Assembly (NCBI GenBank): GCA_029559475.1
Contig: JAKQBN010000055.1
Location: 7,089-71,088 of the forward strand
Reading direction: 5' to 3'
DNA: 64,000 nucleotides
DNA from: a bacterium
GTDB lineage: Bacteria; UBA4055
Shown here: positions 28,032-47,534 of the stretch, piece by piece
How positions within the stretch are numbered: the first letter of the stretch is position 1
How the letters are laid out: the number at the start of each line of letters is the position of its first letter
The notes under the pieces: generated by a model
Databases searched by the model: none
What the model saw: only the letters and a program-made list of their open reading frames with translations
Told to the model about the DNA's origin: nothing
Made by a program: the position numbers and the translations under genes

Positions 28032-28059
28032 ATTTCAACCTCATGTTAATTTTTTCGCA

Positions 28060-28089
28060 AATATAACAATAGCTGTAAGGATTAGTCAA
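28060..28089 (-). promoter_or_regulatory. sigma70-type promoter for the MscS-family gene
   Basis: Minus strand: TTGACT (28084-28089), 18-nt spacer, TATATT (28060-28065). RBS gaggt precedes ATG 28031. Confidence 0.35.
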
Positions 28090-28118
28090 TATATAAATAG
28101 AATATTCGGACGCGTTTA

Positions 28119-28865: not shown

Positions 28866-28874
28866 ATTTCCTCC

Positions 28875-29249: not shown

Positions 29250-29262
29250 CGACCTGTCTCCT

Positions 29263-30015: not shown

Positions 30016-30053
30016 TGAAAATTAGTTCATATATTGCGTGAAATCAAGGTAAA

Positions 30054-31424
30054 TCAAACAGAATTGTATTTAGGTTTACGTCTGTATTCAACGGTTTTGG
30101 GCTCTTTGATTTCTGCCGGTTTATGCTTGAATCTGTCGGGAGACCGGTGCGCAGGCCTTTTATTCTGAACTGATTCTGAAAGTTTACGTTCAGCGACCTT
30201 TCTGGGCAGTTCCTTTGCGGAAACCGGGACCGGAGTGACGCCGGTGAACGGATAGGGGTGATCTTCGACTACCGGGATCTTTTTCGAGATAAGTTTCTCG
30301 ATATCACGCAGGTAAGGTCTTTCTTCAATGTCGCAGAATGAATAGGATGTGCCTCTTGCTCCGGCTCTTCCTGTCCTGCCGATCCGGTGAACGTACATCT
30401 CCGCGATATTGGAAATTTCGTAATTAATTACATATTCAAGATCGTTCACGTCTATTCCTCTTGCGGCTATATCGGTAGCTACAAGAACTCGGGTCGACTG
30501 ATCTTTGAAATTATTAAGAGCTCTCTGTCTGGCATTCTGAGCTTTGTTACCGTGTATCGCCTCTGCCGTAATATTGTTTTTCTGAAGAATCTTAACAACT
30601 TTATCCGCGCCGTGTTTTGTGCGTGTGAAAACCAGAGCTGTTTTAATTTCTTTGTTCTTGAGAATATCAATAAGAAGCGCCGACTTGTTCGCTTTATCCA
30701 CGAAGTAAACGTACTGATCGATCGTATCTACAGTAGAAGATATTGGAGTCACTGAAACATGAGAAGGATCATTAAGGATCGTTCCCGCCAGTTTTATGAT
30801 CTCATCCGGCATTGTTGCGGAAAAGAAAAGCGACTGTCTTTTTTTCGGAAGAACGGCAAGAACTTTTCTGATATCGTGAATGAATCCCATATCGAGCATT
30901 CTGTCAGCTTCGTCAAGAACGAATATCTCAATATCCTGGAGGCTTATAAATTTCTGGTTCATCAGATCTAAAAGCCTTCCGGGAGTGGCGATAAGTATAT
31001 CTATCCCGTCCTTTAATATCTGTGTCTGCGGATACTGATTAACTCCGCCGAAGATCACGGCGGTCTTTAGTTTTGTGTATCTTCCGTAGGCTTTGAAGCT
31101 GTCGCCGATCTGAATCGCAAGTTCTCTTGTCGGAGTAAGTATCAGGCTTCTTATCTTTCTTTTTCCTTCGTGTTTTCTTTCGCTGAGCAGTTGAAGGATA
31201 GGCACTGCGAAAGCGGCAGTCTTACCTGTGCCTGTCTGTGCGCACCCGAGAAGGTCGCGGCCTTTCAGGCAGACCGGTATGGATCGTACCTGTATCGGCG
31301 TCGGAGTCTTGTAGCCTTCGACAGCAATAGCTCTCAAGATCGGTTCGATTATATTTAATTGTTTGAACGGTGAATTTTCGTTCAAAGGTGAAACTTCAGA
31401 TTTTATCGTATTCGTCAAAATCAT
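30054..31424 (-). CDS. DEAD-box ATP-dependent RNA helicase
   Basis: Q-motif region, [25 protein letters not shown], basic C-terminal tail. Confidence 0.9.
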
Positions 31425-31545
31425 TCCTTAATTTTCTATTATTTGCGGATTATTCCGGTAATTGATTCAATACTCTATCGTTTGTTTGTTCTATGTTACA
31501 TACCTGATCAAACTTGATATCGTATCTTATTTGAAACGGTGACCG

Positions 31546-31574
31546 AATATAATCAATATTTTATATTAAATCAA
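31546..31574 (-). promoter_or_regulatory. sigma70-type promoter for the DEAD-box helicase gene (long 5' UTR)
   Basis: Minus strand: gccTTGATT (31569-31574), 17-nt spacer, TATATT (31546-31551), about 115 nt upstream of the ATG. Confidence 0.35.
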
Positions 31575-31592
31575 GGCAATTAAAAGTTCTGC

Positions 31593-32408
31593 CTATTTAC
31601 CCACTCCGTACATCGGCGTAATACCCTGTCCGAGGATGATCGAAACATTCTGCTTTTCTCTGACCAGCTCGATCTTTTCTTTCTCGATCTCGAGTGCACG
31701 GAGCTGCAGATATTCCTGGATTGACATAGACATCTGATTCTGATAGGCTTTATCAGCAATAGCTTTATTAACCTCGGCTTCCTTTCTGGAAACCTCAGCC
31801 TTAGATCTTGCTTCCTGTGTAAGTATGCTCTGATTCTGAGCTGCGGTCCTTTTTGTTTCCTCGAGAACTTCCTGCGGTGGAGTAACGGCACCGACCACTA
31901 CCTGCAGAATTTCAACAGGAATATCTATCTTTTTGCAGTAATCAGTAATAAGCGTGAAAGTTTCGCTCTGGATCTCCGCAAGTACCTGTCGGTTCCCCGC
32001 AAGATCGAACATTTTGTAAGAAGAGGCTTTATCCCTTATCATAGTTCTGAAAGTTTCCTGAATCGACATCGCATACCAGTTCTGACCGAATTTTTCATAA
32101 AGTTTAGGCGTTTGGCCTTTTATGATCTGAAGTTTCAGATATGCGTTGAAGTCCACCGGAATGTTGTCGTCGGTTATCATATCATCGAACGGTTCTGTGA
32201 TCGTCAGAGGCGTAACTTTAAAAAAAATCGCGCTTGTTGTCGGTGCCACCCAGACTAGACCCGGCTTTACAGCATCCTGATCAACTCCTCCATGTCCGAA
32301 AACCCAGGGCTGCATAAGAAGTACAGCTTCTTCATCCCCGTTCGGAGATACGGAGCAACCGGCAAGAAAAATTAACGAGGTTAATAGGAGATATTTTACA
32401 TACTTCAT
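31593..32408 (-). CDS. SPFH/Band-7 (prohibitin-like) lipoprotein
   Basis: Signal peptide with lipobox LAGCS. Prohibitin-like core and C-terminal coiled coil. Confidence 0.7.
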   Translation of the reverse strand: MKYVKYLLLTSLIFLAGCSVSPNGDEEAVLLMQPWVFGHGGVDQDAVKPGLVWVAPTTSAIFFKVTPLTITEPFDDMITDDNIPVDFNAYLKLQIIKGQTPKLYEKFGQNWYAMSIQETFRTMIRDKASSYKMFDLAGNRQVLAEIQSETFTLITDYCKKIDIPVEILQVVVGAVTPPQEVLEETKRTAAQNQSILTQEARSKAEVSRKEAEVNKAIADKAYQNQMSMSIQEYLQLRALEIEKEKIELVREKQNVSIILGQGITPMYGVGK

Positions 32409-32421
32409 TTGATCCTCCTGT

Positions 32422-33354
32422 TTAGTTTTGTCTTATATTATGTTCGGCGAGTCCGTAACATTCGTTCTTTTCGTGATTCTCGTGATGCCCCATCGGTTCT
32501 ATATGAACCACGATGTCGTAAACGTTCGGGATCTCTGATCTAATTTTATCTTCAAGCGCCATTACGAGATCGTGGGCATCAGATACTTTAATATTCCCGT
32601 CAACTTCCACGTCCATGTCGATAGTGTAAAGCACTCCGAGCTTAGTTATTCTAACGCGGTGCGGATTACCCACTCCGTCAGATTTTCTTACGACCTCGAA
32701 AATCTTATTGTATAGTTCCTGATCAACTTCTCCTTCCATCAGTTCCGTTAGGGTTCCCATGAATATCCTGACTGCGGAGAACATTATCCATACGCTTATT
32801 ATTATTGCAATTATCCTGTCTATTACAGGCATGTGAAAGTAAAAAGCGCAACATAGACCCATAAGTACACCGGTTGAAGTGACAACATCGTTGAGCATAT
32901 TTCTGCAGTTAGCTTTAAGCATTTCGCTGCGGGATTTTTTACCGAGAGCGTACTGGCTGTACGATAAAAGTATTTTTCCGAATATCGAGAAAACGGTCAC
33001 GTAGACGGCCCATATTCCCGGCATTTCTATAACAGGATGATTCGCGAGCTTATCTATCGTCGTCATAGCGAGCTGGCCGCCTATGAAGAACATTATAAAT
33101 GAAAGAACCGCAGTAGCTATTGTTTCAGCTCTGAAATGGCCGTACGGGTGTTTAGCGTCCGGAGGAGTATCAATTATCTTAGCCACGAACAGAGTGATTA
33201 TAGATATAAAAATATCGGTCATGCTGTCGATACCGTCGCTGACTACGGACATACTTCCTGACATCAGACCTATTATGATCTTGGATGCCGAAAGCACTGC
33301 ATTACCCGCGATGCTTATGATTGAAGCTGTTCTTATTATTCTGTTCCTGTCCAT
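32422..33354 (-). CDS. cation diffusion facilitator (CDF) family metal transporter
   Basis: Six TM segments with SMSVVSDGIDSMTD and HPYGH motifs. Cytoplasmic C-terminal domain. Confidence 0.85.
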   Translation of the reverse strand: MDRNRIIRTASIISIAGNAVLSASKIIIGLMSGSMSVVSDGIDSMTDIFISIITLFVAKIIDTPPDAKHPYGHFRAETIATAVLSFIMFFIGGQLAMTTIDKLANHPVIEMPGIWAVYVTVFSIFGKILLSYSQYALGKKSRSEMLKANCRNMLNDVVTSTGVLMGLCCAFYFHMPVIDRIIAIIISVWIMFSAVRIFMGTLTELMEGEVDQELYNKIFEVVRKSDGVGNPHRVRITKLGVLYTIDMDVEVDGNIKVSDAHDLVMALEDKIRSEIPNVYDIVVHIEPMGHHENHEKNECYGLAEHNIRQN

Positions 33355-33478: not shown

Positions 33479-35005
33479 ATGACTTTATCAAAATCAAAAA
33501 TGCTGTTTAATTCGATATTACTGATCTGTACCGTTGTTTCATCACAGACAATAGTTCAGTGGTACACATCAATGGGGAATTTTAAAGGCCAGATGAGAGA
33601 GGATCTCGTTCCTATCACAGCTAATAATTTTATCGATCTTACAAACGCGGGTTTTTATGACGGTCTGATATTTCACAGAGTGATACAGGGTTTTGTCATA
33701 CAGGACGGCGACCCGCTGGGTACAGGCACCGGAGGACCGGGATATACGATACCTGATGAATTTCATCCTGATCTCAACCACAATTCCGCGGGAGTGCTCT
33801 CTATGGCAAATGCGGGGCCTAATACAGGGGGCTCACAGTATTTCATAACGCTGGATTCTTATCCTCATCTTAACGATAGCTATTCGGTCTTCGGTAAGAT
33901 AGTCGAGGGGATGGATGTTGTTTTCAATATCAGTTATGTTCCGGTAGATGATTCAGACAAACCGGTAACTCCTGTAAGAATAGACAGTATCAGAGTCGTA
34001 TATTCACCTCCTGCAGATGGAGTTTATCTAAGCGGTTATATCGAAGGCAGGACGCTTGTTTATGACGAAATATCCCTTGTCAATGTTAATGACCTGTTCT
34101 CGGATCGCGGCGGTGCGGACATTATGCTGAGTATTGAAGGCAATAGCAACCCTGAGATTCTTTCGTGTGCTCTGAACGATTCAGTCCTGACTCTAACGGC
34201 AGGAAATACTTCCGAAGGCTCATCTATAGTTACACTTAAAGGTACCGCGGGTGATTCATCAGAGACTTTTGATATTAAAGTATCTGTAATTGACTATAGC
34301 ATGACAGTGGAAGATTTTGAATCTGGAAGTATAGTCAGATTCCCGTGGCAGACAGGAATATACGGCTGGTCAGCTCAGAATACCGATCCGCAGGAAGGGG
34401 TCTACAGCCTGCAGTCCGACGCGATCGGGCATAGCCAGACCACGGAAATATTCATTGATACATATTATGAAAACGACGGTGAAATAAGCTTCTGGTACAA
34501 AGTTTCGTCCCAGGAAGATTATGATTATCTGGAGTTTTGGATCAACAGGATTAAAAAGATGTCCGTAAGCGGAGAGACACCCTGGAGAAAGATCGCTTTT
34601 CCAGTATCGTCCGGCAACCGCACTTTTAAATGGTATTATAAAAAAAGTGCTTCGGGGGTCTCCGGCGAGGACTGCGCAAGGATCGACAGGATAGAATTCA
34701 GAGGCGGTTCACCGGTATCGATAGAGCCTCAGATCACGCCTGTTCAGGTAGAGCTTTATAAGAATTATCCGAATCCGTTCAATCCAAGCACAGAAATAAC
34801 TTTTTCAATAGACAGAGCTCAACCTGTCAGGCTGTCGGTTTATAATCTTTCAGGCCAATTGGTCTCAGATCTCGTCAACAGGAAGCTGGAAAAAGGTTTT
34901 CATCAAATCAATTTTGATGCTTCAAACCTAAACAGCGGGATTTACTTTTATAAATTGGAATGCGAAGGTTTTACCGGGACGAATAAAATGCTGCTTATCA
35001 AATAG
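33479..35005 (+). CDS. secreted cyclophilin-type peptidyl-prolyl isomerase with extra beta-rich domains and T9SS C-terminal sorting domain
   Basis: FHRVIQGFVIQDGDP, SMANAGPNTGGSQYFIT. The C-terminal YPNPFNPSTEITFSI...SGIYFYKL is a T9SS type-A sorting domain. Confidence 0.85.
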   Translation: MTLSKSKMLFNSILLICTVVSSQTIVQWYTSMGNFKGQMREDLVPITANNFIDLTNAGFYDGLIFHRVIQGFVIQDGDPLGTGTGGPGYTIPDEFHPDLNHNSAGVLSMANAGPNTGGSQYFITLDSYPHLNDSYSVFGKIVEGMDVVFNISYVPVDDSDKPVTPVRIDSIRVVYSPPADGVYLSGYIEGRTLVYDEISLVNVNDLFSDRGGADIMLSIEGNSNPEILSCALNDSVLTLTAGNTSEGSSIVTLKGTAGDSSETFDIKVSVIDYSMTVEDFESGSIVRFPWQTGIYGWSAQNTDPQEGVYSLQSDAIGHSQTTEIFIDTYYENDGEISFWYKVSSQEDYDYLEFWINRIKKMSVSGETPWRKIAFPVSSGNRTFKWYYKKSASGVSGEDCARIDRIEFRGGSPVSIEPQITPVQVELYKNYPNPFNPSTEITFSIDRAQPVRLSVYNLSGQLVSDLVNRKLEKGFHQINFDASNLNSGIYFYKLECEGFTGTNKMLLIK

Positions 35006-35020
35006 CGGCAGTTTCGGAAT

Positions 35021-35539
35021 TTATTCAACTTCGATATCGAAAGATTTTAATAGTGATATTGCTTCCGGGATCGAAAATTTTGCTTTCTTGTGAATATTCT
35101 GGTTCAGATTTATTTCATAATTGACCGCATTGACGAATGAGGCAGAACTGAGGTCGCAATTCTTAAACCTGCTGTTTTGTAGGTCTGAATTGTCAAAAAC
35201 AGCTTTAGTCAGGTTAGTTCTATAAAAATCGCAATCGTGAATTTTGCAGCTGTCAAATATAATATTCTTCAGATCCATTTCAGAAAACACGCACAAGGTT
35301 ATCTGACAGTCTTTGCAGTTAAAGCTGAATGTGAAAGTATCGCAGTTTGAAAAATTCAGCCCCAGCATTTTGCAGTTATTGAACGAAACATTTATAAGCC
35401 TGGTTTTAGTCAGATCTACATTCGACAGATTGCAGTTTTCAAAGCGGCAGTCTGTGAAGGCTGTTCTCTTAAAAGATAGGCCGGTGAAATTTATATTTTC
35501 AAAGGTTTCAGATTCAAATTCATTATTTTCGTATTCCAT
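35021..35539 (-). CDS. pentapeptide-repeat protein
   Basis: Repeated A(D/N)LxX-type units throughout (FENCNLSNVDLTKTRLINVSFNNCKM...). Confidence 0.85.
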   Translation of the reverse strand: MEYENNEFESETFENINFTGLSFKRTAFTDCRFENCNLSNVDLTKTRLINVSFNNCKMLGLNFSNCDTFTFSFNCKDCQITLCVFSEMDLKNIIFDSCKIHDCDFYRTNLTKAVFDNSDLQNSRFKNCDLSSASFVNAVNYEINLNQNIHKKAKFSIPEAISLLKSFDIEVE

Positions 35540-35565
35540 AGCTATATCTTTTCCAGATAAGGTTA

Positions 35566-35590
35566 GACTTTTTTGCGACGAATAAATTTA
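35566..35590 (+). repeat. junction repeat M1 (gacttttttgcgacgaataaattta)
   Basis: 22/25 identical to M2 at 37321-37345. It overlaps the RhuM stop codon. Confidence 0.85.
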
Positions 35591-36637
35591 TTTTAATTTC
35601 TTTACATCTATTTTTTTGATATCTGTTTCAAGCTCTTTCAGGCTATTTTCTCTTTCTGCAAGCCTCTGGTTCTCAATGAATTTCTCATATTCGGCTTCTG
35701 ACTTCTCAAGAGCTGCCTGATGACTTATTTTTCCTGCGTGTGTGAGTAATTCTCTCTTGTTCATTTTTAAAATATCGTCAAGCTTTTCTATCCAGTCTTT
35801 CATATACATCGGAATATGCTGATTCGCCATTGTCTCAGCGAACGCGAGATACTGCTCCACAAGAAGCCCGAGAAGGCTCATTTCGTTCTCATTCAGATAA
35901 TTTTTTGCTGTCGAAACTTCGCTTTTTGTAATTCGTGTGCCGGAATCTTTATCGTAAGACTGCATGCCCATCAAAGGCATTTTTGCATCAGCTCTTCGAT
36001 AAATCAGCTCAGCTGCGGTCTGCTTACTTATAGCCCATAATAGTTTATTCTGAACGATCTTGAAGAATTCGATAGTTTTTTCATCTTTGGGATTATAATC
36101 TATGCTTGTTGTATAAATATCTTTGATCTTCTGATAAAAGAACCGTTCTGAGATCCTTATCTCGCGAAGTCGTGCCTGAAGTTCGTTAAAATAATTCATC
36201 GAATTACCCTTTTTGAACCTCTCATCGTTCAGAGTGAAGCCTTTAACGATATATTCCTTAAGCCTCTGAGTAGCCCATTTTCTGAATTGGGTACCCTGGA
36301 GTGATTTTACACGATATCCGACAGAAATTATAGCATCGAGATTATAATAATTAACTTCCGTTTCTTGAGTTTTACCTTCAATTGCACCGTGCTGAGTGGT
36401 TTGTCGGAATTTCCGACATACCATATGTTCATCCAATTCGCACTCTTTAAAAATATTTCTAATATGTTCAGTTATTGTCGTTCTGCCTTTCCCGAAAAGC
36501 TGAGCTATCTGATTTTGATTCAGCCATACGGTTTCACTTTCCAGGATCACATCGATCTTTACTTTGCCGTCATCAGCTTCGTAAACAAGGAATTGGCTGC
36601 TCTTCGAATCATGTATTGTGATATCATTTTTTGCCAT
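35588..36637 (-). CDS. RhuM-family protein
   Basis: N-terminal FLVYEADDGKVKIDVILESETVWLNQNQIAQLFGKGRTTITEHIRNIF and the central region are typical of RhuM. Confidence 0.8.
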   Translation of the reverse strand: MAKNDITIHDSKSSQFLVYEADDGKVKIDVILESETVWLNQNQIAQLFGKGRTTITEHIRNIFKECELDEHMVCRKFRQTTQHGAIEGKTQETEVNYYNLDAIISVGYRVKSLQGTQFRKWATQRLKEYIVKGFTLNDERFKKGNSMNYFNELQARLREIRISERFFYQKIKDIYTTSIDYNPKDEKTIEFFKIVQNKLLWAISKQTAAELIYRRADAKMPLMGMQSYDKDSGTRITKSEVSTAKNYLNENEMSLLGLLVEQYLAFAETMANQHIPMYMKDWIEKLDDILKMNKRELLTHAGKISHQAALEKSEAEYEKFIENQRLAERENSLKELETDIKKIDVKKLK

Positions 36638-36695
36638 ATATTCTCCTCAGTAACTTCATAGGCAATTTAAGAAAAAATTCAAAGATATTCTATAT

Positions 36696-36733
36696 TTACC
36701 TGAATTATTTACATGAACCTTATTATTGACGAT
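36696..36733 (+). repeat. junction repeat N1 (ttacctgaattattta...ccttattattga)
   Basis: 32/38 identical to N2 at 38022-38059, including an exact 16-mer. Contains ACCTGAAT, also present in R1/R2. Confidence 0.85.
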
Positions 36734-36784
36734 TTGATTTAATCGGAAAAATTCGTATATTACGGATAAGAAAACGGAGTAAGA

Positions 36785-37033
36785 ATGCCTGTAATATCAA
36801 GATTCTATGGCATAATAATTAAGATGTACTTCAATGAGCACGGAATTCCTCATTTTCATGCTATTTATAATGAGTATAACGGAGTTTTCAGCATATCTGA
36901 TCTGATAATGATAGAAGGGGATTTGCCTTCAAAAGCACAGACACTTGTAAAGGAGTGGGCATTTAAATATAAAGATGAACTTGAAAAGATGTGGGCAACG
37001 AAAGACATAATTACTCTTCCGGGGTTGGAATAA
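36785..37033 (+). CDS. DUF4160-family protein
   Basis: MPVISRFYGIIIKMYFNEHGIPHFHA is the DUF4160 signature. Confidence 0.8.
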   Translation: MPVISRFYGIIIKMYFNEHGIPHFHAIYNEYNGVFSISDLIMIEGDLPSKAQTLVKEWAFKYKDELEKMWATKDIITLPGLE

Positions 37034-37320
37034 TGAATTTCCATAGAATTAAAAATATAGAGGTTTTGAATAATTATCAGCTCAAAGTTGAATTTATAAC
37101 CGGCGAAATAAAAATATACGATTGCAAACCACTGCTTGAGAAAGATGTTTTCAAAGCTCTGGAAAATGAGAATTTATTCAGGAAAGTAAAGGTTGATATT
37201 GGAGGCTACGGTATTATCTGGAACGATGAAATTGATATTTCTGAATCTGAATTATGGATAAACGGCAAAAATATTAACTCCCAAGTCGCTGAAGACAAAG
37301 CAGATTACAATTCAAAATAA
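37033..37320 (+). CDS. DUF2442-family protein (usual partner of DUF4160)
   Basis: The ATG overlaps the upstream stop (taATG). IKNIEVLNNYQLKVEFITGEIKIYD resembles DUF2442. Confidence 0.75.
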   Translation: MNFHRIKNIEVLNNYQLKVEFITGEIKIYDCKPLLEKDVFKALENENLFRKVKVDIGGYGIIWNDEIDISESELWINGKNINSQVAEDKADYNSK

Positions 37321-37345
37321 GACTTTTTTATAACGAATAAATTTA
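37321..37345 (+). repeat. junction repeat M2 (gacttttttataacgaataaattta)
   Basis: Starts immediately after the DUF2442 stop codon. 22/25 identical to M1. Confidence 0.85.
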
Positions 37346-37350
37346 CTCGA

Positions 37351-37899
37351 TTACGGCAGGCGGCCGAGCAGAAGGTTTAAACTCAGGCCCGCAAAGCTTT
37401 TCTCCGCATTGATATTCCCGAAAGCCGAAAGACTTAATCCGAAAGGACGCGCTCTGTTCAGATCAAGCTGAATTTCCAAAGGAAACCCGAATGTCTGAAA
37501 ATTGTTCATTTCGTATCTTGGTGAAGGATCGTTCTCAATAAAATATTTTTTACCTTCATATTCACCGGTTGTAACACTAATACCGCAAAGATATGATAAA
37601 TGAATATTCCCGAAAGATCGTCCGTATCCGTAAAGCAAACCATAATCCCAGGCTGAACCGCCATTATAAGGCTCACACGAAATAGTGCTACCTCCCGCAA
37701 TTCTCAACTTGATAACGTGCGTGTATTTTGAAAAATTGATTGAAACATTACCGCCTGTTAAGCCTGTATCCTCTGTAACAACTGCGCCTAATCCTGCGCT
37801 GAACCAGAGATGGTAGGGGAAAGGTCCGGTGCGTTCCTTGAAATTTATCGCGTTCAGGCATGAGGCGGTGAAGATCAGGAACAATAAAAAATACTTCAT
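37351..37899 (-). CDS. putative secreted or outer-membrane beta-rich protein
   Basis: N-terminal signal peptide (MKYFLLFLIFTASCLNA). Gly/aromatic-rich alternating pattern. No family recognised. Confidence 0.45.
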   Translation of the reverse strand: MKYFLLFLIFTASCLNAINFKERTGPFPYHLWFSAGLGAVVTEDTGLTGGNVSINFSKYTHVIKLRIAGGSTISCEPYNGGSAWDYGLLYGYGRSFGNIHLSYLCGISVTTGEYEGKKYFIENDPSPRYEMNNFQTFGFPLEIQLDLNRARPFGLSLSAFGNINAEKSFAGLSLNLLLGRLP

Positions 37900-38021
37900 T
37901 TTGACCTCAGTTTTGCAGTCGAATTACACTTTCTGATAATTTAGGAACACTTGAGACTTTTTGCAAGGTAATATTATCGTTTTGCTGTCCTCAGCAAAAT
38001 GATCGGAACTCACATTTCCGC

Positions 38022-38059
38022 TTACCTGAATTATTTATAAAAGCCTTATTATTGAAGAG
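38022..38059 (+). repeat. junction repeat N2
   Basis: 32/38 identical to N1. Its last 11 nt overlap the stop and last codons of the DUF4143 ATPase gene. Confidence 0.85.
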
Positions 38060-39254
38060 TTGGTTTAGACAGAAAATCAAACAGATTTATATGTTTTACG
38101 CCTGACTTTCTTTTAAAAACGACCGGATCCATTGAAATAACATACTTCGGATGGTTGTCCCTGACAGCCTCAAGGGCTGAAAACTCTCTTTCTGCTGTTT
38201 CCTGATTCTGCATCAGATATGATACCTGAATATAGATTTTTTCTTCTTCCTTTTCCGCTATAAAATCAATTTCCTTGTCTCCTATTCTGCCGAATGATAC
38301 TTTATAATCCCTTCTGTAAAGCTCAAGGCAGACTATGTTCTCCAGTATTCCGCCGATATCTTCATCTCTGAATCCCAGTACCGCGTGTCTTAAACCCAGG
38401 TCGCCGGCGTAATATTTTGCGTTCGTGTCAAGATATTCTTTTCCTTTTAAGTCGTATTGCCTGATCTTATGTGTGATCATTACATCGTTCAGGTTGTGTA
38501 TAAGGCTCAGAATAGTCGGAACACTGGTTTTTATGTGCTGGTTCTTCATATATTTTACGACGCTGCTTGCGTTGAACTGATTACCTATGTTATCGAAAAC
38601 AAAGCTCACTACGTCCTCCAGCAGGCTCACATTCCTTACATTGAATTTCTTAACTATATCTTTGAGAAGTATCGTCTGGTAGATAGCATCAAGGAACTGA
38701 AATGTTGCGGAAGCTTGAAAATCCAGATGAAAAAGTCCCGGCAGCCCTCCGAATCTGATATATTTTCTGAATACTTCCTCCTTCGGCTTACTTTCAAAAC
38801 CTCCGAGCTCGGTAAATTCATTGAAGCTGAAAGTATATATTTTGAACTCGACATATCTGCCTGAGATCAAAGTGGCAAGATCAGATGAGAGAAGATGCGA
38901 GTTCGATCCTGTGATATAAACATCCATGCCTTCAGCCAGAAAAGAGTTCACCGACCGTTCCCATTCCTTTATTTCCTGTACTTCATCAATAAGGATAACC
39001 GAACCGGACTTTCCTCCCGATTCGTCTATATAGCTATTCAATACTTTATAGTCAGTTATAAAATCGAACTGACGAAGCTCTTTATTTATTGAAATGACTT
39101 TCTTTTTCGGTTCGTTATGTTTTATCTCAGCTTCGATCTGCTTCAGCAGTTCACTTTTTCCCACCCTTCTCATACCGCTCAGGATCTTTATGACCGGTTT
39201 ACCCATAAAAGGCCTGATCTTTTTTAAATATGTTTCCCTTATTATAGTTTTCAT
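38049..39254 (-). CDS. AAA_14 + DUF4143 ATPase
   Basis: Walker A SGMRRVGKS, Walker B VILIDEVQ. C-terminal DUF4143-like region (GRIGDKEIDFI...). Confidence 0.8.
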   Translation of the reverse strand: MKTIIRETYLKKIRPFMGKPVIKILSGMRRVGKSELLKQIEAEIKHNEPKKKVISINKELRQFDFITDYKVLNSYIDESGGKSGSVILIDEVQEIKEWERSVNSFLAEGMDVYITGSNSHLLSSDLATLISGRYVEFKIYTFSFNEFTELGGFESKPKEEVFRKYIRFGGLPGLFHLDFQASATFQFLDAIYQTILLKDIVKKFNVRNVSLLEDVVSFVFDNIGNQFNASSVVKYMKNQHIKTSVPTILSLIHNLNDVMITHKIRQYDLKGKEYLDTNAKYYAGDLGLRHAVLGFRDEDIGGILENIVCLELYRRDYKVSFGRIGDKEIDFIAEKEEEKIYIQVSYLMQNQETAEREFSALEAVRDNHPKYVISMDPVVFKRKSGVKHINLFDFLSKPTLQ

Positions 39255-39409
39255 GTTTTAATTCCTATTTTAAATTCCTGACAAAATAAAGGAAATTTAA
39301 TATATACTTTAGATAAATGCAAGTTTTTAATTAATTTAAAATGTAAAATTATTTAAATATTAAAGCTGCGGCTTCATACTGCGTAGAAGTATCATTTATT
39401 TCTGACCAC

Positions 39410-39497
39410 TTTTGGCTGTTTTACAAGGATAATAAATAACATTAATGGACAAAAGGAAAGGTTATTTTAACAATATTTTGGCTATTTTACAAGGATA
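39410..39497 (+). repeat. two 22-nt direct repeats (ttttggctRttttacaaggata) 66 nt apart
   Basis: 39410-39431 and 39476-39497 differ at one position. They lie in the 336-nt AT-rich gap upstream of the DUF4143 ATPase gene. Confidence 0.85.
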
Positions 39498-39590
39498 CTT
39501 TATTTTGAACGATTAATTAACAGGCATATAGGGTAAGTTTCAAATCAACGATACAAGATAAAATTCCCAAATATTCTATAACTACCTTCA

Positions 39591-40094
39591 CTACCCCAGC
39601 CCCAGCACCAATTCCGGAATAAACTTATTCCTTGCGTCAGGATAGATCTTCTTTCTAAAGTTCTCTACCGCAATTTTCTCATATAAGTATAAAGACCCTC
39701 CGTCTCCGGCTATTGAATATTTAGGCATAATAATATCACCCAGCTTAATATCCGCTTTCAAAGCACCTGCCGCGCCTATGAATATCACTTTTTTGCATTT
39801 CGATCCGCCCAGAGTCAAACATGAATCGATCGTATTGGCCGCACCCGCCGCTACCTGAATATAGCCGAAACTTTTACCTTCAAATTCTACGGTATAACCG
39901 CAATAATACGGACCTTTTTTTTCTACTCTGACCACAGGATTGTATGCCGAAAAAATAATTTCAGGATTCCACGAAGGAGCCACGATTACCGCATCGTATT
40001 CAAAATCGGGATCTAACCCGTAGATATCTTTCAGCAGATTATCACAGGCGTTATACTTATGCAGGGATGATTTAAATTTTTCGTAGAGGGTCAT
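39591..40094 (-). CDS. nucleoside phosphorylase-family (PNP_UDP_1-like) protein, apparently C-terminally truncated
   Basis: VIFIGAAGALKADIKLGDIIMPKYSIAGDGGS resembles the phosphorylase core. At 167 aa it is short for the family. Confidence 0.45.
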   Translation of the reverse strand: MTLYEKFKSSLHKYNACDNLLKDIYGLDPDFEYDAVIVAPSWNPEIIFSAYNPVVRVEKKGPYYCGYTVEFEGKSFGYIQVAAGAANTIDSCLTLGGSKCKKVIFIGAAGALKADIKLGDIIMPKYSIAGDGGSLYLYEKIAVENFRKKIYPDARNKFIPELVLGLG

Positions 40095-40179
40095 CTATTC
40101 GAACTCCTTTGAGCATTTGAGCCTGAAGCATTCAGATACTTATAACTTTTTTTTGTCGTCAATCTAAGAGGGAATAGTA

Positions 40180-40731
40180 TCATTTTTCAAGAAATTGAAT
40201 AGCTTTATATATATTTGAGTATGATCCTCCTTTAAGTTCTAATTCTGAAGCGTATTGAACGGCTTTATACTGTCCTGAAATTAATTTTTCAACCCACTCT
40301 CTATTTTTTAGAAATTTCTCAGTTTTATCATAGCTCTCAATATATTTCAGTAACTCTTTTTTCAATTCGCCATAACTAGAGTATCGCTTATTGCGCTGAA
40401 CAAAATGGATAAGGAACCAGAATTCTATTGAAGGCAGGCTGTCGCAAATCAGCACGTTTTTATTGTCTTTGTATCTTTTTCTAAACTTTTCCAGTTTATC
40501 CTTCTCAACGTCATTTCTTTGTGATACATCAGCATCGAATACGCATATCGCTACAGCATCGGCTTCTAAAATTTCCTTTACTTTTTTCTCTATCTTCGAG
40601 ATGCAGGTATTACTGTCGCAAAATCTTGGACTCACACTATATTTATAATCTTTAAGAATTTTCAGGTGTTTAAAGTAATATTTTTCTGTTACACCTTCTC
40701 CGATTATATGTATTGCTTGCTTTAATTTCAT
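40180..40731 (-). CDS. RloB/AbiLii-like protein
   Basis: The N-terminal IHIIGEGVTEKYYFKHLK matches the RloB signature (cEGe.TE..Yf). It sits 7 nt downstream of the ATPase partner. Confidence 0.75.
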   Translation of the reverse strand: MKLKQAIHIIGEGVTEKYYFKHLKILKDYKYSVSPRFCDSNTCISKIEKKVKEILEADAVAICVFDADVSQRNDVEKDKLEKFRKRYKDNKNVLICDSLPSIEFWFLIHFVQRNKRYSSYGELKKELLKYIESYDKTEKFLKNREWVEKLISGQYKAVQYASELELKGGSYSNIYKAIQFLEK

Positions 40732-40738
40732 TATAATC

Positions 40739-42034
40739 TTAATCTATATTAGGCACTGCTCCGAATTTTCCGTATTTATATGCTTTCTGCAGAGATGAGA
40801 TTCTGTTAAGACCGTTGAAACCTGTAAGGGGATAAAGCTTTGTCGAGCCGTCTTCTCTTTTTTCCGTGAACCAGAAATTATCCTTTCTAAGAAGATCTGT
40901 TTCGTCGAATAAATTGTCATAGTGAGTCGCAACAAGCACCTGAGCTTGGTCTGAATTACGTAGAAAATGCTCAAGAACATATTCAATAAGCCTTGGATGC
41001 AGCTTTGATTCTATCTCATCTATCGTAATGAATGCGTTATCCTCAATCGATTTAATAATTGCTCCGAACAAACCGAATATTCTTTTTGTACCCTCTGATT
41101 GCCATTCTATAGGCAGTCCGTAAATTTCTTTTCTACCATCGCTGACGACAGTATGCTTGAATTCAGTTACAGGATATTTAAAACTCTTATCTTTTTTTAA
41201 ATCTTCAATAACAGATGCGCGAATACTTAAAAAATTACCTATTGTCTGAGCCTGTTTTATAAAATCATCATCAACACTCTGAACGAATTCTTTGACATTT
41301 ATATCAGAAATATTAAAATCAGCCTCTTTCAGGCACTCAAGCATTTTTAATTTATGGCTAGGGTTTGTTTTAATTAATTCCTCTGAAAAATGCTGTAAAG
41401 GATCGTTAGGCACGATTGAATTGAAAACATGATCAAATAGCCATTTTGTAACATCGCTCAAGCCGTTCAGATAAGCATTTATCTTTCTCAATGCCGCCAG
41501 GACAGACATATTTTTCAAACATTTTACATTTAGTTCATCTTGAGTGATCTTGCTGATATTGTTTTTTCCTTTAAAAACTATTTTGGAAACGTCCGACTTC
41601 TCGTCATAATTTCTTTCAAAAAGAGTAGCAGGCTGAGTACCCGGATACATATCAAGCTTTTCATAAAGGACAGCTTTCTGATCGACCTCTAAATAATAAA
41701 CATATTTGATCCCATCTTTATAAAAAACAAGCTTAAACACGCTCGGGTGGTTTCTGCTTGTTTTATCGAGAAGAAAAGGTATTGCATTGGTGCCGGAATA
41801 CTTATTGTCGGTTCCTATAAACCAGAAATTTATAAGGAACTGAAAAGCAGCTATAAGATTAGACTTTCCGGACGCATTGGAACCATATAAAATGCCCAAC
41901 TTTAACAGGCGGACCCCTTTTGCGGCCTCTACAACATGATGATCTTCAAAAGTCCTGTCTTTCGAAGCTTCGAAAGAATATGTAACTTCATCTCTGAACG
42001 AGAGAAAATTCTTGATTGTAAGTGAATGTATCAT
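40739..42034 (-). CDS. AAA_21/ABC-type ATPase, AbiLi-like partner of RloB
   Basis: Walker A YGSNASGKSN, Walker B/D-loop FITIDEIESKLHP. Confidence 0.8.
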   Translation of the reverse strand: MIHSLTIKNFLSFRDEVTYSFEASKDRTFEDHHVVEAAKGVRLLKLGILYGSNASGKSNLIAAFQFLINFWFIGTDNKYSGTNAIPFLLDKTSRNHPSVFKLVFYKDGIKYVYYLEVDQKAVLYEKLDMYPGTQPATLFERNYDEKSDVSKIVFKGKNNISKITQDELNVKCLKNMSVLAALRKINAYLNGLSDVTKWLFDHVFNSIVPNDPLQHFSEELIKTNPSHKLKMLECLKEADFNISDINVKEFVQSVDDDFIKQAQTIGNFLSIRASVIEDLKKDKSFKYPVTEFKHTVVSDGRKEIYGLPIEWQSEGTKRIFGLFGAIIKSIEDNAFITIDEIESKLHPRLIEYVLEHFLRNSDQAQVLVATHYDNLFDETDLLRKDNFWFTEKREDGSTKLYPLTGFNGLNRISSLQKAYKYGKFGAVPNID

Positions 42035-42371
42035 TTTTCCGGTTCCGGCAGATTAAACATTGTCAGAAATGTAAAACAAAACACTTAATTTGTCAAGTGA
42101 GTTTATGAAAATAGCAGAAAAATTGCAAAAACATAAAATAAGGTTGTTGTATAAATATAATTATCCTATTTGTTGTGTTAACTTTAAAAAATTACTAACT
42201 TATCTATACGCCAATAATATTTTTTCTAATTTCATAATATAATTTTAATTTAAAAATTACTTTGGATTATTATTATTAATGGGATAGATTTAGTTTATAT
42301 TTGTATCGTAAAGTGAAAAGTCAGGGAACTACGGGAGAGTCCAAATGAGTGAGCCTGTAAACGAAAGAAAC

Positions 42372-42439
42372 ATTGTCGTATCGACAAAACGACAATTAAC
42401 AATAATGCAAGGTTAGATGCATGGAAAAAGATTCCATGC
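42372..42439 (+). other. two hairpins in the leader of the DUF5131 gene
   Basis: attgtcg (42372-78) / cgacaat (42390-96) with an 11-nt loop. gcatgga (42419-25) / tccatgc (42433-39) with a 7-nt loop. The second ends 36 nt before ATG 42475. Confidence 0.4.
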
Positions 42440-42474
42440 GAGTAAATCTGTAATTAGAGAAAAGTAAAACGCAA

Positions 42475-43209
42475 ATGGCAACGACTAAGATAGAATGGAC
42501 AGAATCAACATGGAATCCGATCACCGGATGCACAAAATTATCCGCAGGCTGCAAATTCTGTTATGCCGAAGTAATGGCGAGAAGGCTCAAAGCTATGGGA
42601 CAGCCGAAATACAAAGACGGTTTCAAGCTTACGCTCCATCCCGACACGCTGACAGAACCTTACACTTGGAAGAAGCCTAAAATGATCTTCGTGAACTCAA
42701 TGAGCGATCTCTTCCATAAAGATGTCCCCGTTGATTACATACAAAAAATATTCAAAGTCATCAAAGACAATCCTCAGCATGTATTTCAGATACTAACAAA
42801 AAGAGCCGACATATTAAGATACTACGACAGTGAAGGCTGGCTTGACTGGCCGCATAACCTTTGGATGGGCGTGACAGTGGAAGATTCAACCGTAACATCA
42901 AGAATTGACTGCCTGAGAAAAACAAAAGCAAGAGTAAAATTCCTCTCCTGCGAACCGCTCCTAAGCTCATTACCCGAACTCAACCTACAAGCAATAGACT
43001 GGGTCATCGTAGGCGGAGAAAGCGGAAGAACACCGCGCCCGATCAAAGAAGAATGGATAATCGAAATAAAAGAACAATGTGAAAAAGCCGGAACAGCATT
43101 CTACTTTAAACAGTGGGGCGGCACCAACAAAAAAGAAGCAGGCAGGCTGTTACAAGGCAAAAGGTACGATCAAATGCCTGAAATGGTCGAGCAAGAAACT
43201 CTAATATAA
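42475..43209 (+). CDS. DUF5131 (phage Gp37/Gp68) family protein
   Basis: MATTKIEWTESTWNPITGCTKLSAGCKFCYA, with three Cys, is the family N-terminus. Also GGESG...FFKQWG. Confidence 0.85.
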   Translation: MATTKIEWTESTWNPITGCTKLSAGCKFCYAEVMARRLKAMGQPKYKDGFKLTLHPDTLTEPYTWKKPKMIFVNSMSDLFHKDVPVDYIQKIFKVIKDNPQHVFQILTKRADILRYYDSEGWLDWPHNLWMGVTVEDSTVTSRIDCLRKTKARVKFLSCEPLLSSLPELNLQAIDWVIVGGESGRTPRPIKEEWIIEIKEQCEKAGTAFYFKQWGGTNKKEAGRLLQGKRYDQMPEMVEQETLI

Positions 43210-43234
43210 AACTTTTTGTTACGAATAAATCTTA
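43210..43234 (+). repeat. junction repeat M3 (aactttttgttacgaataaatctta)
   Basis: Starts right after the DUF5131 stop. Shares acttttt + acgaataaat with M1/M2 at the same spacing (one T fewer). Confidence 0.6.
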
Positions 43235-43279
43235 TGCTGTCCGGTCAGTAGACTATCTTTTCTTTACTTCAAATGCGTT

Positions 43280-44647
43280 CTAATTCTTAAATATTTTATC
43301 GTATTTTGTGTAATCGAAATTTGGTCCTAGAATTTTACTTGATTTATCTTTTAATTGTTTTGTTATACGATATATTTCATTGTTGTTATAGAATTCCCCA
43401 TTCTCATTGATTAACTTAAATAATAACTCAAAATCACTATTGTCAAAATCGTTTAAAATTTTGCTAATGATATTATCATACGTGCTTAAAGCAGAATAAT
43501 AAGTAAACGATTTTCCACAATAATTTATCAAGAATGTCTTAACTTGAATTTGAGATAAAACAATTTTTGATCTATTATAAAGCTGCATCAGAGCATCTTC
43601 CTGTATACAGTCGTATAGATTTACATTTACATAGCCATTAGGCTCAATAAGTATTTTATCATGTATTTCTTCGATTTTAGATATATGCGCCTCAATGCTA
43701 TTACTTAGAAAATATGCTACTGTAAATAAAGAAATATTTTTGTTAGCTTCGATTTGTATATAATTTTTTACTGTCGAATCTAGGACATTATATATTTCTG
43801 GATATTTGCTAATATATGATGTAAGAGCAGTAATTCGAGAACTACCTTGATTTATAGCCTTATCGTTTATGCTACAAGAAAAATTACTGGGTTTAATATT
43901 GTTGAATTTTTGTGAATTTTGCTTGATTAAATTTATAAAATCTTCAAGATGTTTTTCTGTAAGTGTCTTAATACAAAATACATTCAGATAACGGTTTTTT
44001 TCGCATTCAGAATTATCAAGAATAAATGTAAGTTTCCATAAAGATTCGAATAGTTTTTCTCTCACTGGTTTGTTAATTCTCGAGTAGTATCGTACATTTA
44101 GGAAATCTTCTAATCCCTCAGTACGGACTCTTTCAAAATAATCTGTAGTATTTTTTAAAAATTCATCAATTATCTTTTTACATAATAACGCTTCTTTCTC
44201 AAAGACAATTTCAAACATATTTCTCATGTGGTTTCTAACATTTTCCGGTGTCGGATTTATTAATCTATTTCCATTGTCAATTAATGGATGAGCAGCTATG
44301 TTTCGTTCTTTAACAAGTTCATTTATTCTATGAAATTCTACATCATTAATTAATTCAGTACTATCTTTTATTTCTTGTAACAATGTTTTTTCCCAGTCTG
44401 AAGATGTAGGTTTTAGCTTTTGTTCGTTCTTGATTTTATCAATTATTCTTTTTGCGTTATTATCAGAATATATTTCATCGAGCAAAATCAATTTGTTCAT
44501 TAAATCATAGACTACTACTGAATACAAAACGACTATTGCAGAACGATAATTACCGTTATGATAACTTGATAAGACTTCTTTTAAGTATTCTTTAGTTTGT
44601 ATGTTTGGAATTTTCTTTATCTCATCTTCAATAATAAATTCATCCAT
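43280..44647 (-). CDS. HEPN-like (Rx4H) N-terminal domain protein with unknown C-terminal region
   Basis: Helical N-terminus (NYRSAIVVLYSVVVYDLMNKL) followed by VKERNIAAHP (R-x4-H). aaggtg RBS. Last gene of the six-gene operon. Confidence 0.5.
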   Translation of the reverse strand: MDEFIIEDEIKKIPNIQTKEYLKEVLSSYHNGNYRSAIVVLYSVVVYDLMNKLILLDEIYSDNNAKRIIDKIKNEQKLKPTSSDWEKTLLQEIKDSTELINDVEFHRINELVKERNIAAHPLIDNGNRLINPTPENVRNHMRNMFEIVFEKEALLCKKIIDEFLKNTTDYFERVRTEGLEDFLNVRYYSRINKPVREKLFESLWKLTFILDNSECEKNRYLNVFCIKTLTEKHLEDFINLIKQNSQKFNNIKPSNFSCSINDKAINQGSSRITALTSYISKYPEIYNVLDSTVKNYIQIEANKNISLFTVAYFLSNSIEAHISKIEEIHDKILIEPNGYVNVNLYDCIQEDALMQLYNRSKIVLSQIQVKTFLINYCGKSFTYYSALSTYDNIISKILNDFDNSDFELLFKLINENGEFYNNNEIYRITKQLKDKSSKILGPNFDYTKYDKIFKN

Positions 44648-44679
44648 TCTTCACCTTCTTTTTTTTATTACAATATTAT

Positions 44680-45639
44680 TTAAGAAAATTTATTTAAAAG
44701 AGTTAAAATCTTTTTAATTTCATATTTTATTTCAGGGCTATCATTGATAGAATCAGCGAATTCAGAATCAGTAATGAGCTCTCGAAATGCTCTCATCTTT
44801 TTATAGATACTATCTATTTTTCCAGTATCTTTAACCTGTTCGAAACCATTATAAATATCTTTTTGCCCCGATGCTATCTCAGCGAGAACTTTTTTCGCTT
44901 TTTTATCAGGACACTTAGCTATTTCACCTACCTTTCTGATGTCAGAAGCCTGTTGTATTTCTTTGTTTTTTATTTGCAAAACGAGAGTATTAACTAATTC
45001 AGGATGAGATTTGGTTGCATTATTTATAGATTTGTTCTTGAGCAACTCGTCATAATAACTCCAATTTGTCGGTTCCAAGTCTTTAGTCTCAATCATAAAA
45101 GAGAAGACTTTTAAATATCTTTGAGCATCTCCTTTTTTTATACCTAACTCTTTAGCCATTATGTCAACAGATAGCTTTGATTCTTTACTTCGTCTGTACA
45201 AATATCCAGCCTGCTCGTATGGACTCCAGTCTTTTCTTCCTATAATGTGATATTGCCCAAGAAGAGTAAAAATAGATGATTCATCAATGTCTGAAGGTAA
45301 AATTAAACATTTAACTTTACCCCATGAAATAGGATCTTTTTGACATAAAATTCGATATGCCGCTAATCGGCTATTTCCTTCAAGTACAACTAAATCACCA
45401 TCACGCACAATTAAAGGATCAATTAGACCGCCATTACTTTCAATGGAAAGCCTAAGTTGCTTCACATGCTCCATCGAAATCATCAATTTTTCAATGTTAC
45501 TTTGATCGGGCTTGATGTCATCAGAAACTCTTAGGGCACTATAGACTCGAGGATTATCGACATAGAACTTAAGAGAAGCTTGGAGGATTTCCTCTTCTTT
45601 TACTTGAAACTCTTTTTTGCCAATTGTCAATGTATTCAT
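44680..45639 (-). CDS. ParB/Srx-fold N-terminal domain protein (paralogue 2)
   Basis: DNPR, NGGLIDPLIVRDGDLVVLEGNSRLAAY, GRKDWSPYEQAGYLY. Its start overlaps the SNF2 stop (ATGA). Confidence 0.7.
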   Translation of the reverse strand: MNTLTIGKKEFQVKEEEILQASLKFYVDNPRVYSALRVSDDIKPDQSNIEKLMISMEHVKQLRLSIESNGGLIDPLIVRDGDLVVLEGNSRLAAYRILCQKDPISWGKVKCLILPSDIDESSIFTLLGQYHIIGRKDWSPYEQAGYLYRRSKESKLSVDIMAKELGIKKGDAQRYLKVFSFMIETKDLEPTNWSYYDELLKNKSINNATKSHPELVNTLVLQIKNKEIQQASDIRKVGEIAKCPDKKAKKVLAEIASGQKDIYNGFEQVKDTGKIDSIYKKMRAFRELITDSEFADSINDSPEIKYEIKKILTLLNKFS

Positions 45640-47530: not shown

Positions 47531-47534
47531 AAAA

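Follow-up and report, generated by a model that had tools for sequence, protein, structure and literature searches.

A direct-repeat pair in a variable Delongbacteria defence island: anatomy and probable origin

Do the short direct repeats that bracket small gene modules in a bacterial defence island mark sites used by a recombination system, or are they remains of the way the island was put together? The question is raised by a stretch of 64,000 nt (contig JAKQBN010000055.1 of assembly GCA_029559475.1, positions 7,089 to 71,088 of the forward strand), called the window below and used for all coordinates. Its closest relatives are Candidatus Delongbacteria metagenome-assembled genomes (MAGs). 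Two similar segments, N1 and N2, lie on either side of a gene for a beta-rich outer-membrane protein (OMP) and a DUF4160/DUF2442 gene pair. We conclude that N1 and N2 are probably copies by descent of one recombination junction in a hypervariable defence/toxin-antitoxin (TA) island. The repeat does mark module boundaries, but with similar confidence we regard it as a lineage-specific scar, composed of a promoter piece and a gene-end stub, and not as a recognisable recombination site.

The N1/N2 repeat pair and its composite anatomy

A preliminary description of this DNA had counted 32 identities over 38 nt between N1 (36696-36733) and N2 (38022-38059), and reading both copies directly from 35000-40000 gave the same count. 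With a repeat finder and self-BLAST the match runs ungapped to 55 nt at 82% identity (45/55; 36696-36750 against 38022-38076; blastn E = 9e-9 against the window). The exact 16-mer TTACCTGAATTATTTA reported as common to both copies is present at these two sites only by exact count, and its next-best matches have 3 mismatches each; copy counts given here for N, and below for the M linkers, refer to the 64-kb window of the source genome. The 16-mer and the 55-nt pair flank 1,271 nt that hold the OMP gene and DUF4160/DUF2442. The repeat copies and their neighbours are as follows.

36696-36750: N1, consisting of the 16-mer core (36696-36711) and a B-part (36712-36750), within the 147-nt divergent intergenic region of RhuM and DUF4160
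38022-38076: N2, consisting of the 16-mer core (38022-38037) and a B-part, overlapping the 3' end of the AAA_14/DUF4143 ATPase gene
39555-39587: N3/A3, a decayed third copy with the core edge and an A-part, after the 3' end of the PNP_UDP_1 gene
36664-36695, minus strand: A-part, the conserved RhuM upstream/5'-untranslated region (5'-UTR), found in relatives upstream of RhuM or of an OsmC-like gene
35588-36637, minus strand: RhuM-family gene (PADLOC PDC-S05), transcribed away from N1
36785-37320, plus strand: DUF4160/DUF2442 module (DUF4160, 36785-37033; DUF2442, 37033-37320)
37351-37899, minus strand: the 'beta-rich' OMP, with a signal peptide and an 8-stranded outer-membrane beta-barrel (OmpX/Ail/OmpA-TM-like)
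38049-39254, minus strand: AAA_14/DUF4143 ATPase gene (PADLOC PDC-S01)

On its own N3/A3 reaches a blastn E-value of 0.04. In one related contig (L015) the PNP 3' end is joined straight to the A-part and RhuM.

Could such a pair arise by chance in AT-rich DNA, or through a chimeric MAG assembly? We assign this a negligible probability. The 16-mer alone is indeed non-specific, since single copies with unrelated flanks occur in at least 120 unrelated viral contigs. The 55-nt match, with the E-value given above, speaks against chance, and a related contig (L005) has the same junction at 93% identity. What is more, an independent assembly (L003, from Logan SRR5168926) is 100% identical over N2 and its flanks, and the DUF4160 gene has identical neighbours on five contigs, so the N1/N2 arrangement is not an assembly artefact. 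The E-value and the independent assembly have effectively refuted both versions of this explanation already.

Neither strand of N1 or N2, nor of the linkers M1 and M2 introduced below, folds better than shuffled sequence (z = -0.07 to +1.0; for N1 and N2 alone, -0.07 to +0.29). With two N copies in 64 kb and no hairpin structure, the repeat does not behave as a dispersed repetitive extragenic palindrome (REP) or miniature inverted-repeat transposable element (MITE), and among the fetched loci N is matched elsewhere only by the orthologous site of L005. A known RNA was rejected as well: Rfam returned nothing at the gathering threshold, and one chance-level snoRNA match (E = 0.047) falls outside N1 and N2.

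The comparative genomics that the preliminary description had proposed for this locus was run on eleven related contigs (L004, L005, L013-L016, L044, L046, L047/L048, L049, L050 and L051), which were retrieved by genome scan, metagenome scan and contig look-ups with the ATPase and the beta-rich protein; L047 and L048 are one arrangement in two assemblies. Module content and order differ between them, and all contigs that reach a core flank sit at the same chromosomal position. Homology to the window breaks at 36710/36715 within N1, at 37332-37340 within M2 and at 38065 at the edge of N2. The break in N1 separates two units. The left unit (36640-36710), which holds 15 nt of the 16-mer and the A-part, is found upstream of RhuM in L004, L013, L046, L049 and L051 (L015 has the A-part only) and upstream of the OsmC-like gene or its remnant in L005 and L047. 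The right unit (36715-36790), which holds the B-part and the DUF4160 leader, stays with the DUF4160/DUF2442 module, relocated by the ATPase 5' side, in L004, L013 and L014, where the DUF4160 copy that travels with the B segment is a remnant. Core without B is seen in L046, L049 and L051, and B without core in L004, L013 and L014.

The origin of the core is indicated by the OMP genes. Each island contains 2-3 tandem OMP paralogues of two types, type A ending in ...LLGRLP-stop and type B in ...GLTGTTHFKKYHNN-stop. A type-B paralogue of L047/L048 has the core as its own 3' coding end, ...KKYHNN-stop (AAAAAGTATCATAATAACTAA) followed by GGTAAATATAGAAT. L051 has the exact string AATAATTCAGGTAAATATAGAAT, without a B-part, at a point that follows an OMP gene and precedes RhuM. 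Because of this coding end and this exact string we interpret the 16-mer as the stub of an OMP paralogue 3' end; the A-part would then be the promoter/5'-UTR region that followed the paralogue. The fusion of B-part and core was found only in N1, N2 and L005, and for this reason we read N2 as a copy by descent of an arbitrary junction and not as a site conserved independently. In L005 the ATPase gene, B-part, core and A-part are contiguous; up to the end of the core the sequence shares 93% identity with N2, beyond which it follows N1, so that this contig represents a single-N state without the 1.27-kb segment of OMP and DUF4160/DUF2442 genes.

The earlier suggestion that the repeats stand at module boundaries is borne out to the extent that the units are separately present, absent or relocated in relatives. 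No shared octamer links the N and R junctions (see below). N as a dedicated, reusable site, which that description implied, also fails this comparison: apart from this genome, L005 alone has the intact unit.

A direct repeat with an exact 16-nt block along one edge also brings to mind attL and attR, here produced by site-specific integration of a small circle (OMP plus DUF4160/DUF2442) by a tyrosine or serine recombinase acting in trans, as for cis-mobilizable elements, tycheposon-like accretion of islands or satellites, with the 16-mer as the crossover core. The gene-proximal copy completes a gene 3' end, L005 provides an 'empty' single-copy state, R1/R2 (see below) show a like architecture at the 3' end of an ABC-2 permease gene, and the modules are horizontally transferred, all of which speaks for such integration, as do direct repeats with an identical core on either side of the element. 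Integration of this kind nevertheless seems unlikely to us. The two copies are only 82% identical, with mismatches spread over the repeat. The B-core fusion is a lineage-specific patchwork and not a conserved attB: relatives have core or B alone, and in L047 the core is coding. A conserved attB was not found in element-free relatives, single-copy N being present only in L005. The ATPase tail that N2 supplies is non-native, and in L004 the DUF4160/DUF2442 part moved alone, with other breakpoints. Finally, neither the element nor the island nor the rest of the window yielded a recombinase: the non-overlapping open reading frames of the window (those of 26979-33354 covered through the precomputed contig annotation) contain no domain of an integrase, a transposase or any other recombinase. 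No tRNA was found in the window either. Terminal inverted repeats on the DUF4160/DUF2442 module, considered separately, amount to about 9 nt only (TTATT(A)TTGA) and are too weak.

N1 as a probable promoter region and N2 as an ATPase tail

N1 lies inside the 147-nt spacer between the RhuM start (36637, minus strand) and the DUF4160 start (36785, plus strand). On the RhuM side the A-part contains a -10-like TAGAAT, the reverse complement of 36687-36692, which is kept wherever the A-part occurs and lies at a suitable distance from RhuM; the promoter spacer would be the 16-mer. On the other side there is the following candidate.

36734-36761, plus strand: sigma-70-like promoter candidate of the DUF4160/DUF2442 operon (TTGATT-16-TATATT), its -35 box within the B-part of N1

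Core genes of the organism carry sigma-70-like TTGACT-17-TATATT or TTGACA-17-TATATT upstream. A Bacteroidota-type promoter (-33 TTTG / -7 TAnnTTTG) was rejected, since the core genes show the sigma-70-like TTGACA-17-TATATT instead. N1 may thus be a working divergent promoter region for RhuM and DUF4160, as judged from these consensus-like hexamers.

N2 has neither of the -10 boxes of N1. The ATPase stop codon (38049-38051) lies in it, and the last 8 codons of the gene (38052-38075; ...DFL-SKPTLQ-stop) are read from its B-part. Conservation among ATPase homologues ends at ...DFL, after which come variable tails of 3-10 residues. The native tail is ...DFLCNE-stop: L004, L015 and L050 end in CNE-stop or read through it, and the tails of the window and L005 are read from the B-part. 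Since homologue tails vary after DFL, a swap of the tail seems to be tolerated. At 38065-38076, in ATTTT(T)C, the sequence can be aligned with the native ATPase end as well as with the B-part, and the join of the ATPase gene to the B-part is therefore a microhomology junction. The only evident role of N2 would be to provide the ATPase with a tail and a stop codon. More distant ATPase homologues (P0004, P0007; L041-L043) were set aside, having unrelated contexts with no M or N.

Downstream of N2 lies one further feature.

38004-38020, minus strand: terminator-like hairpin directly downstream of the ATPase stop codon and the N2 core, part of segment D

None of the relatives has a counterpart of segment D (46 nt, 37976-38021), which separates the N2 core from the OMP promoter and holds two hairpins, CGGAAATGTGAGTTCCG and TTTTGCTG-AGGA-CAGCAAAA.

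A hairpin of this kind after N2, together with the promoter-like hexamers in the divergent region at N1, would be expected if N were repeated as a selected regulatory element, such as an operator or a common promoter or terminator, and not through shared history. We consider this improbable. N2 overlaps a coding 3' end, has no plus-strand gene downstream and lacks the -10 boxes of N1. The 16-mer is unconserved in three of four relatives with an equivalent linker. Moreover, B-part and core are unrelated segments that were fused arbitrarily, and sharing such a junction is a sign of copying rather than of convergence.

Linkers, repeats and stubs elsewhere in the island

In the preliminary description N copies alternated with copies of a second linker, M, so that nearly every small module was bracketed. 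The M copies first needed here are listed below.

35565-35590, minus strand: M1 linker (consensus TTATTCGTTGCAAAAAGTCT), between the RhuM stop codon and the pentapeptide-repeat gene
37320-37345, minus strand: M2 linker, degenerate, between the stop codons of the OMP gene and DUF2442
37954-37973, minus strand: M-type linker, which holds the -35 box of the OMP-gene promoter TTGCAA-17-TAAATT

Further M-type copies, also on the minus strand, are found at 39410-39431, 39476-39497 and 43208-43233, and the copy at 37954-37973 lies 50 nt from N2, so the order M1-N1-M2-N2 is an approximate alternation only. On the main coding strand of the island the M consensus is TTATTCGTTGCAAAAAGTNT, and the family is TTATYCGTTGCAAAAAGT with the variant TATCCTTGTAAAATAGCC. 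Within the window M is confined to the island, and both there and in relatives it has a single orientation, whatever the gene orientation. In L047 it makes up an entire 21-nt spacer, and tandem M-M pairs with a 32-nt period are present in L004, L047 and L051. In L050, L015 and L005, on the other hand, M is the native spacer from the ATPase gene or an OMP gene to the next OMP paralogue, with the TTGCAA-17-TAAATT promoter. M copies with no OMP gene after them are best read as relics of lost paralogues, to judge from these orthologous spacers. A sigma-54 promoter in M was rejected: the GG-GC spacing is wrong in the one copy with a candidate GG, and by eye the others have no GG at the required distance.

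The OMP family to which these spacers belong is small and lineage-specific (18 proteins in a collection of 5.8 billion). The AlphaFold model of the beta-rich protein (pLDDT 82) shows a signal helix and eight long strands, and its best matches in the PDB are OmpX, Ail, NspA and the OmpA transmembrane domain. Tandem arrays of diverged OMP paralogues, some of them pseudogenes, are seen at the locus in L044, L046, L047, L049, L050 and L051. The turnover of surface proteins beside defence genes could relate to phage receptors.

We considered whether the linkers, chiefly M but also N, are sites of an unrecognised, hairpin-less cassette-exchange system, integron- or Xer/dif-like, specific to Delongbacteria and served by a recombinase in trans. 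As background, attC sites are imperfect inverted repeats of 57-141 nt that fold as single strands and carry R'' (RYYYAAC) and R' (GTTRRRY) boxes, and in an integron array intI lies adjacent with attI and Pc, which may be absent in clusters of attC sites lacking integron integrases (CALINs). A dif-type site of 28 nt consists of two 11-nt arms, for XerC and XerD (the XerD arm being TTATGTWAA-like), around a 6-nt centre. The island-only, singly oriented M copies of about 20-26 nt, 0-13 nt from stop codons on both sides, would suit such a system, as would the tandem M-M pairs at their 32-nt period in L004, L047 and L051, and the tidy module edges and insert-plus-direct-repeat patterns could be its footprints. 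The reverse complement of N1, ATCGTCAATAA-TAAGGT-TCATGTAAATA, also loosely resembles an 11-6-11 dif site, and homology to L004 breaks at its centre.

This too has a low probability in our view, slightly lower even than that of a regulatory element. In the compact L050 M is the native promoter region (TTGCAA-17-TAAATT) of the ATPase/tandem-OMP genes, and a tandem array of co-oriented genes as the source of M accounts for its many copies as well as for their common orientation. Neither a hairpin nor an attC-like structure is present, spacers go down to 21-30 nt, and many junctions outside M and N carry stubs and microhomology, that is, imprecise joining. An attC identity was rejected, since N1, N2, M1 and M2 have no fold, no R''/R' boxes are visible in the sequences and the spacers are too short (21-30 nt), and no integrase domain that could represent intI occurs in the non-overlapping open reading frames of the window. 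A dif/Xer site in N1 seems unlikely as well. The reverse complement fits ATAA-N6-TTATGTWAA with 1 mismatch, but the number of such fits does not exceed chance (15 found against 10.5 expected), and the XerD-arm-like ATGTAAA is missing from N2 and L005, which have TTTTATAAA and TCTTATAAA, respectively, instead. If true, an M-linker system would be a new gene-cassette machinery that assembles defence genes beside a surface-protein array.

An octamer, ACCTGAAT, had been taken to link N1 and N2 to a second repeat pair, R1 and R2, and to be confined to these four junctions. The window contains 8 copies (2.4 expected), all on the plus strand, in line with gene orientation; the additional ones at 38224, 39853, 53965 and 56307 are all intragenic. 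In relatives the octamer position reads exactly in L051, and as ACTGAAT in L005, ACCTTAGT in L046 and ACCTTAAT in L049. With 8 copies, 4 of them intragenic, and conservation in one of four orthologous linkers, the octamer was dropped as a shared junction motif. Since it is coding in R (ABC-2 permease, ...FRYKKVN-stop) and poorly conserved in relatives, it is not a common functional motif of N and R, and the link is coincidental.

R1 (50030-50085) and R2 (51834-51889) form a 56-nt direct repeat, 93% identical. R2 comprises the last 18 codons and the stop codon of the ABC-2 permease gene, and R1 is a displaced pseudo-copy; the 1.75 kb between them hold an AF2212-like/PIN pair together with an HTH-SocA/Panacea gene. 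The ATPase module comes straight after the permease gene in L016 and L050. By blastn no third R copy was found at the far island end. L015 has a 15-nt fragment of the ABC-2 3' end (R) before the ATPase module, joined at TAT to the pentapeptide start.

Similar stubs occur at other places. An 18-nt OsmC 3'-end stub (39360-39377, minus strand), just upstream of the ATPase module, is identical to the OsmC-like gene of L005 (ATGAAGCCGCAGCTTTAA); it is preceded by CTACGCAGTAT, a string also present in R. DUF5131 stubs are found in L005 and L047, and PNP stubs in L015 and L047. The remaining island junctions are at unrelated positions, with 3-7 nt microhomology and gene-3'-end stubs. Across the island, then, the junctions are imprecise, lie in microhomology and have left stubs behind, as scars of illegitimate or short-homology joining do. 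Because they are idiosyncratic and carry stubs, they argue for imprecise short-homology recombination and not for one enzyme acting at one site. A phage origin of the sites was rejected on IMG/VR searches: the 16-mer gave single chance matches, M 2 matches and an R 26-mer none.

The island, its proposed assembly and known counterparts

These elements lie in the following island.

35006-51834: variable defence/TA island of about 17 kb, GC content 0.28-0.40 against 0.42-0.47 in the core

It is flanked on the left by a cyclophilin gene with a type IX secretion system (T9SS) sorting domain (33479-35005) and on the right by a TetR-OEP-HlyD-radical SAM-ABC-ABC-ABC2-ABC2 operon (51835-59488). Among relatives, cyclophilin/CsgG/cation-efflux genes flank one side and the ABC-2 operon the other; both are on a single contig in L050 only, and the other related contigs reach one core flank at most. 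The island genes encode the pentapeptide-repeat, RhuM, DUF4160/DUF2442, beta-rich and AAA_14/DUF4143 ATPase proteins, a PNP_UDP_1 fragment, RloB and AAA_21 (AbiLii/AbiLi), DUF5131, PD-T7-3, a ZorD-like SNF2 helicase with partners, the HTH-SocA/Panacea protein and the AF2212-like/PIN pair. PD-T7-3, AbiLi/AbiLii, PDC-S01, PDC-S05, ZorD-like SNF2, PIN, SocA/Panacea and DUF4160/DUF2442 are its defence/TA matches; VapBC also belongs to the defence/TA genes of the locus, and AbiE is present in relatives. A fixed position between core genes, variable content, atypical GC and enrichment in defence/TA genes characterise the locus as a defence island.

In the defence-type block at 43280-49819, four proteins with no Pfam match flank PD-T7-3 (455 aa) and a ZorD/DpdE-like SNF2 helicase (494 aa); two of the four (319 and 336 aa) match PDC-M38A and PD-Lambda-5_A weakly. 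A second low-GC stretch at 1000-7000 (GC 0.29-0.35), with a Type ISP-like restriction-modification protein (1044 aa), DUF4062 and Schlafen/AlbA_2-HATPase, is probably another defence island. Around 27000-35000 gene orientation and GC skew flip, from plus-strand genes and positive skew on the left to minus-strand genes and negative skew on the right, and both flip back near 59 kb. The first switch could be a local gene-orientation effect or reflect proximity of the replication terminus; it cannot place the terminus, because it is reversed again at 59 kb.

Module orders, observed directly on the contigs, suggest how the island was built. L050 is compact, with ABC-2 permease, ATPase, OMP-194, OMP-185, KilA-N, OMP-177 and cyclophilin genes, and in L016 the ATPase gene directly follows the permease; we infer that this layout is close to ancestral. 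The ATPase modules of L014 and L016 are 94-98% identical to that of the window, whereas their adjoining core genes are 74-77% identical, from which it follows that island pieces were exchanged between diverged lineages. Comparison of 38065-39351 with L004, L013, L014, L015 and L016 gave these ranges as well.

On this basis we propose that the ancestral locus consisted of the ABC-2 permease, the AAA_14 ATPase, a tandem array of OmpX-like OMP genes, perhaps the pentapeptide gene, and cyclophilin. Foreign modules (RhuM, DUF4160/DUF2442, AbiL, PD-T7-3, VapBC, SocA and others) would have been inserted, moved and deleted, and this traffic may have left promoter pieces and gene-3'-end stubs as linkers. 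N would have formed when the B-part, the promoter-proximal upstream region of DUF4160/DUF2442, came to lie against the 16-mer core, the type-B OMP 3'-end stub. In N1 the core would be followed by the A-part with the RhuM promoter/5'-UTR, creating the divergent promoter region; N2 would be a truncated B-core copy joined illegitimately, in ATTTT(T)C, to the ATPase gene just past DFL. The direct-repeat pair could in turn mediate loss of the 1.3-kb segment of OMP and DUF4160/DUF2442 genes, with L005 as the single-N state. The L005 and window states might be linked either by an N2-N1 deletion within the 16-mer or by single-crossover insertion of a circular or foreign fragment. As to the enzymology, the joins could be due to recombination between island variants that strains had exchanged, either of the RecA-type short-homology kind or homology-facilitated and illegitimate; since a stub of the recipient gene is left beside the incoming DNA, homology-anchored illegitimate recombination seems the most economical.

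Several observations weigh against descent from one illegitimate junction. M abuts stop codons tightly (0-13 nt), which is tidier than random illegitimate joining, and the left edge of the ATPase module (38065-39351), tacattttaaattaatt, is the same within 6 nt in four contexts. An insert together with a direct repeat recurs in R2-R1 (56 nt), N2-N1 (55 nt), A3-A1 (33 nt) and PNP-PNP' (in L015), a pattern that resembles Campbell-type or integrase-mediated integration. The events that gave two B-core copies in one genome cannot be reconstructed uniquely; because a simple deletion in cis would destroy the parental copy, either a circular intermediate or exchange with another genome has to be invoked. 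The promoters, too, are assigned by consensus match only, in an AT-rich region whose promoter-like sites are no more numerous than in shuffled sequence (16 found, 13.6 expected). The N and M counts, lastly, extend as far as the ends of the window.

If the proposed history is right, the locus would show at base level how, in an uncultured phylum, a defence-gene hotspot is put together and reshuffled with no visible integrase. Resident tandem genes would decay to promoter and 3'-end stubs, which then link modules and offer short homologies to later exchange; such stubs may even donate a C-terminal tail and a stop codon to a neighbouring gene. It also calls for caution in sequence-only scans, as direct repeats around small modules need not be att sites.

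How does the island compare with known systems? Low GC, a fixed position among core genes, variable content, TA and anti-phage genes, and modules more similar than their flanks are features it has in common with the 'defence islands' reportedly described by Makarova et al. and with the hotspots said to have been analysed by, for example, Oliveira et al. Unlike in usual hotspots, the scaffold here seems to be a decaying OmpX-like array whose promoters and 3' stubs act as linkers, with no integrase or tRNA marker. The microhomologies of 3-7 nt, the recipient 3'-end stubs, the imperfect direct repeats and the lack of a dedicated enzyme resemble homology-facilitated illegitimate recombination and short-homology deletion-duplication, on which de Vries and Wackernagel and Prudhomme et al. 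are said to have reported; judging from the sequence here, module edges (the ATPase left edge, M by stop codons) are more regular than in random illegitimate joins. Small modules between repeats that duplicate a gene 3' end, and 'empty' states, are also seen in the cis-mobilizable elements (CIMEs) of streptococcal integrative and conjugative elements (ICEs) and in the tycheposon islands of Prochlorococcus. This locus differs from them in lacking an integrase and a tRNA target, in having a composite, lineage-specific repeat in place of a conserved att site, and in its scattered breakpoints. With integron arrays, CALINs and the pdif modules of Acinetobacter the island shares one- or two-gene modules, including toxin-antitoxin pairs, and short recurrent separators. 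It differs from them in having no attC hairpins or R''/R' motifs, a promoter of its own for each gene, linkers down to 21 nt, sites that are direct and not alternating, and no convincing XerC/XerD 11-6-11 site.

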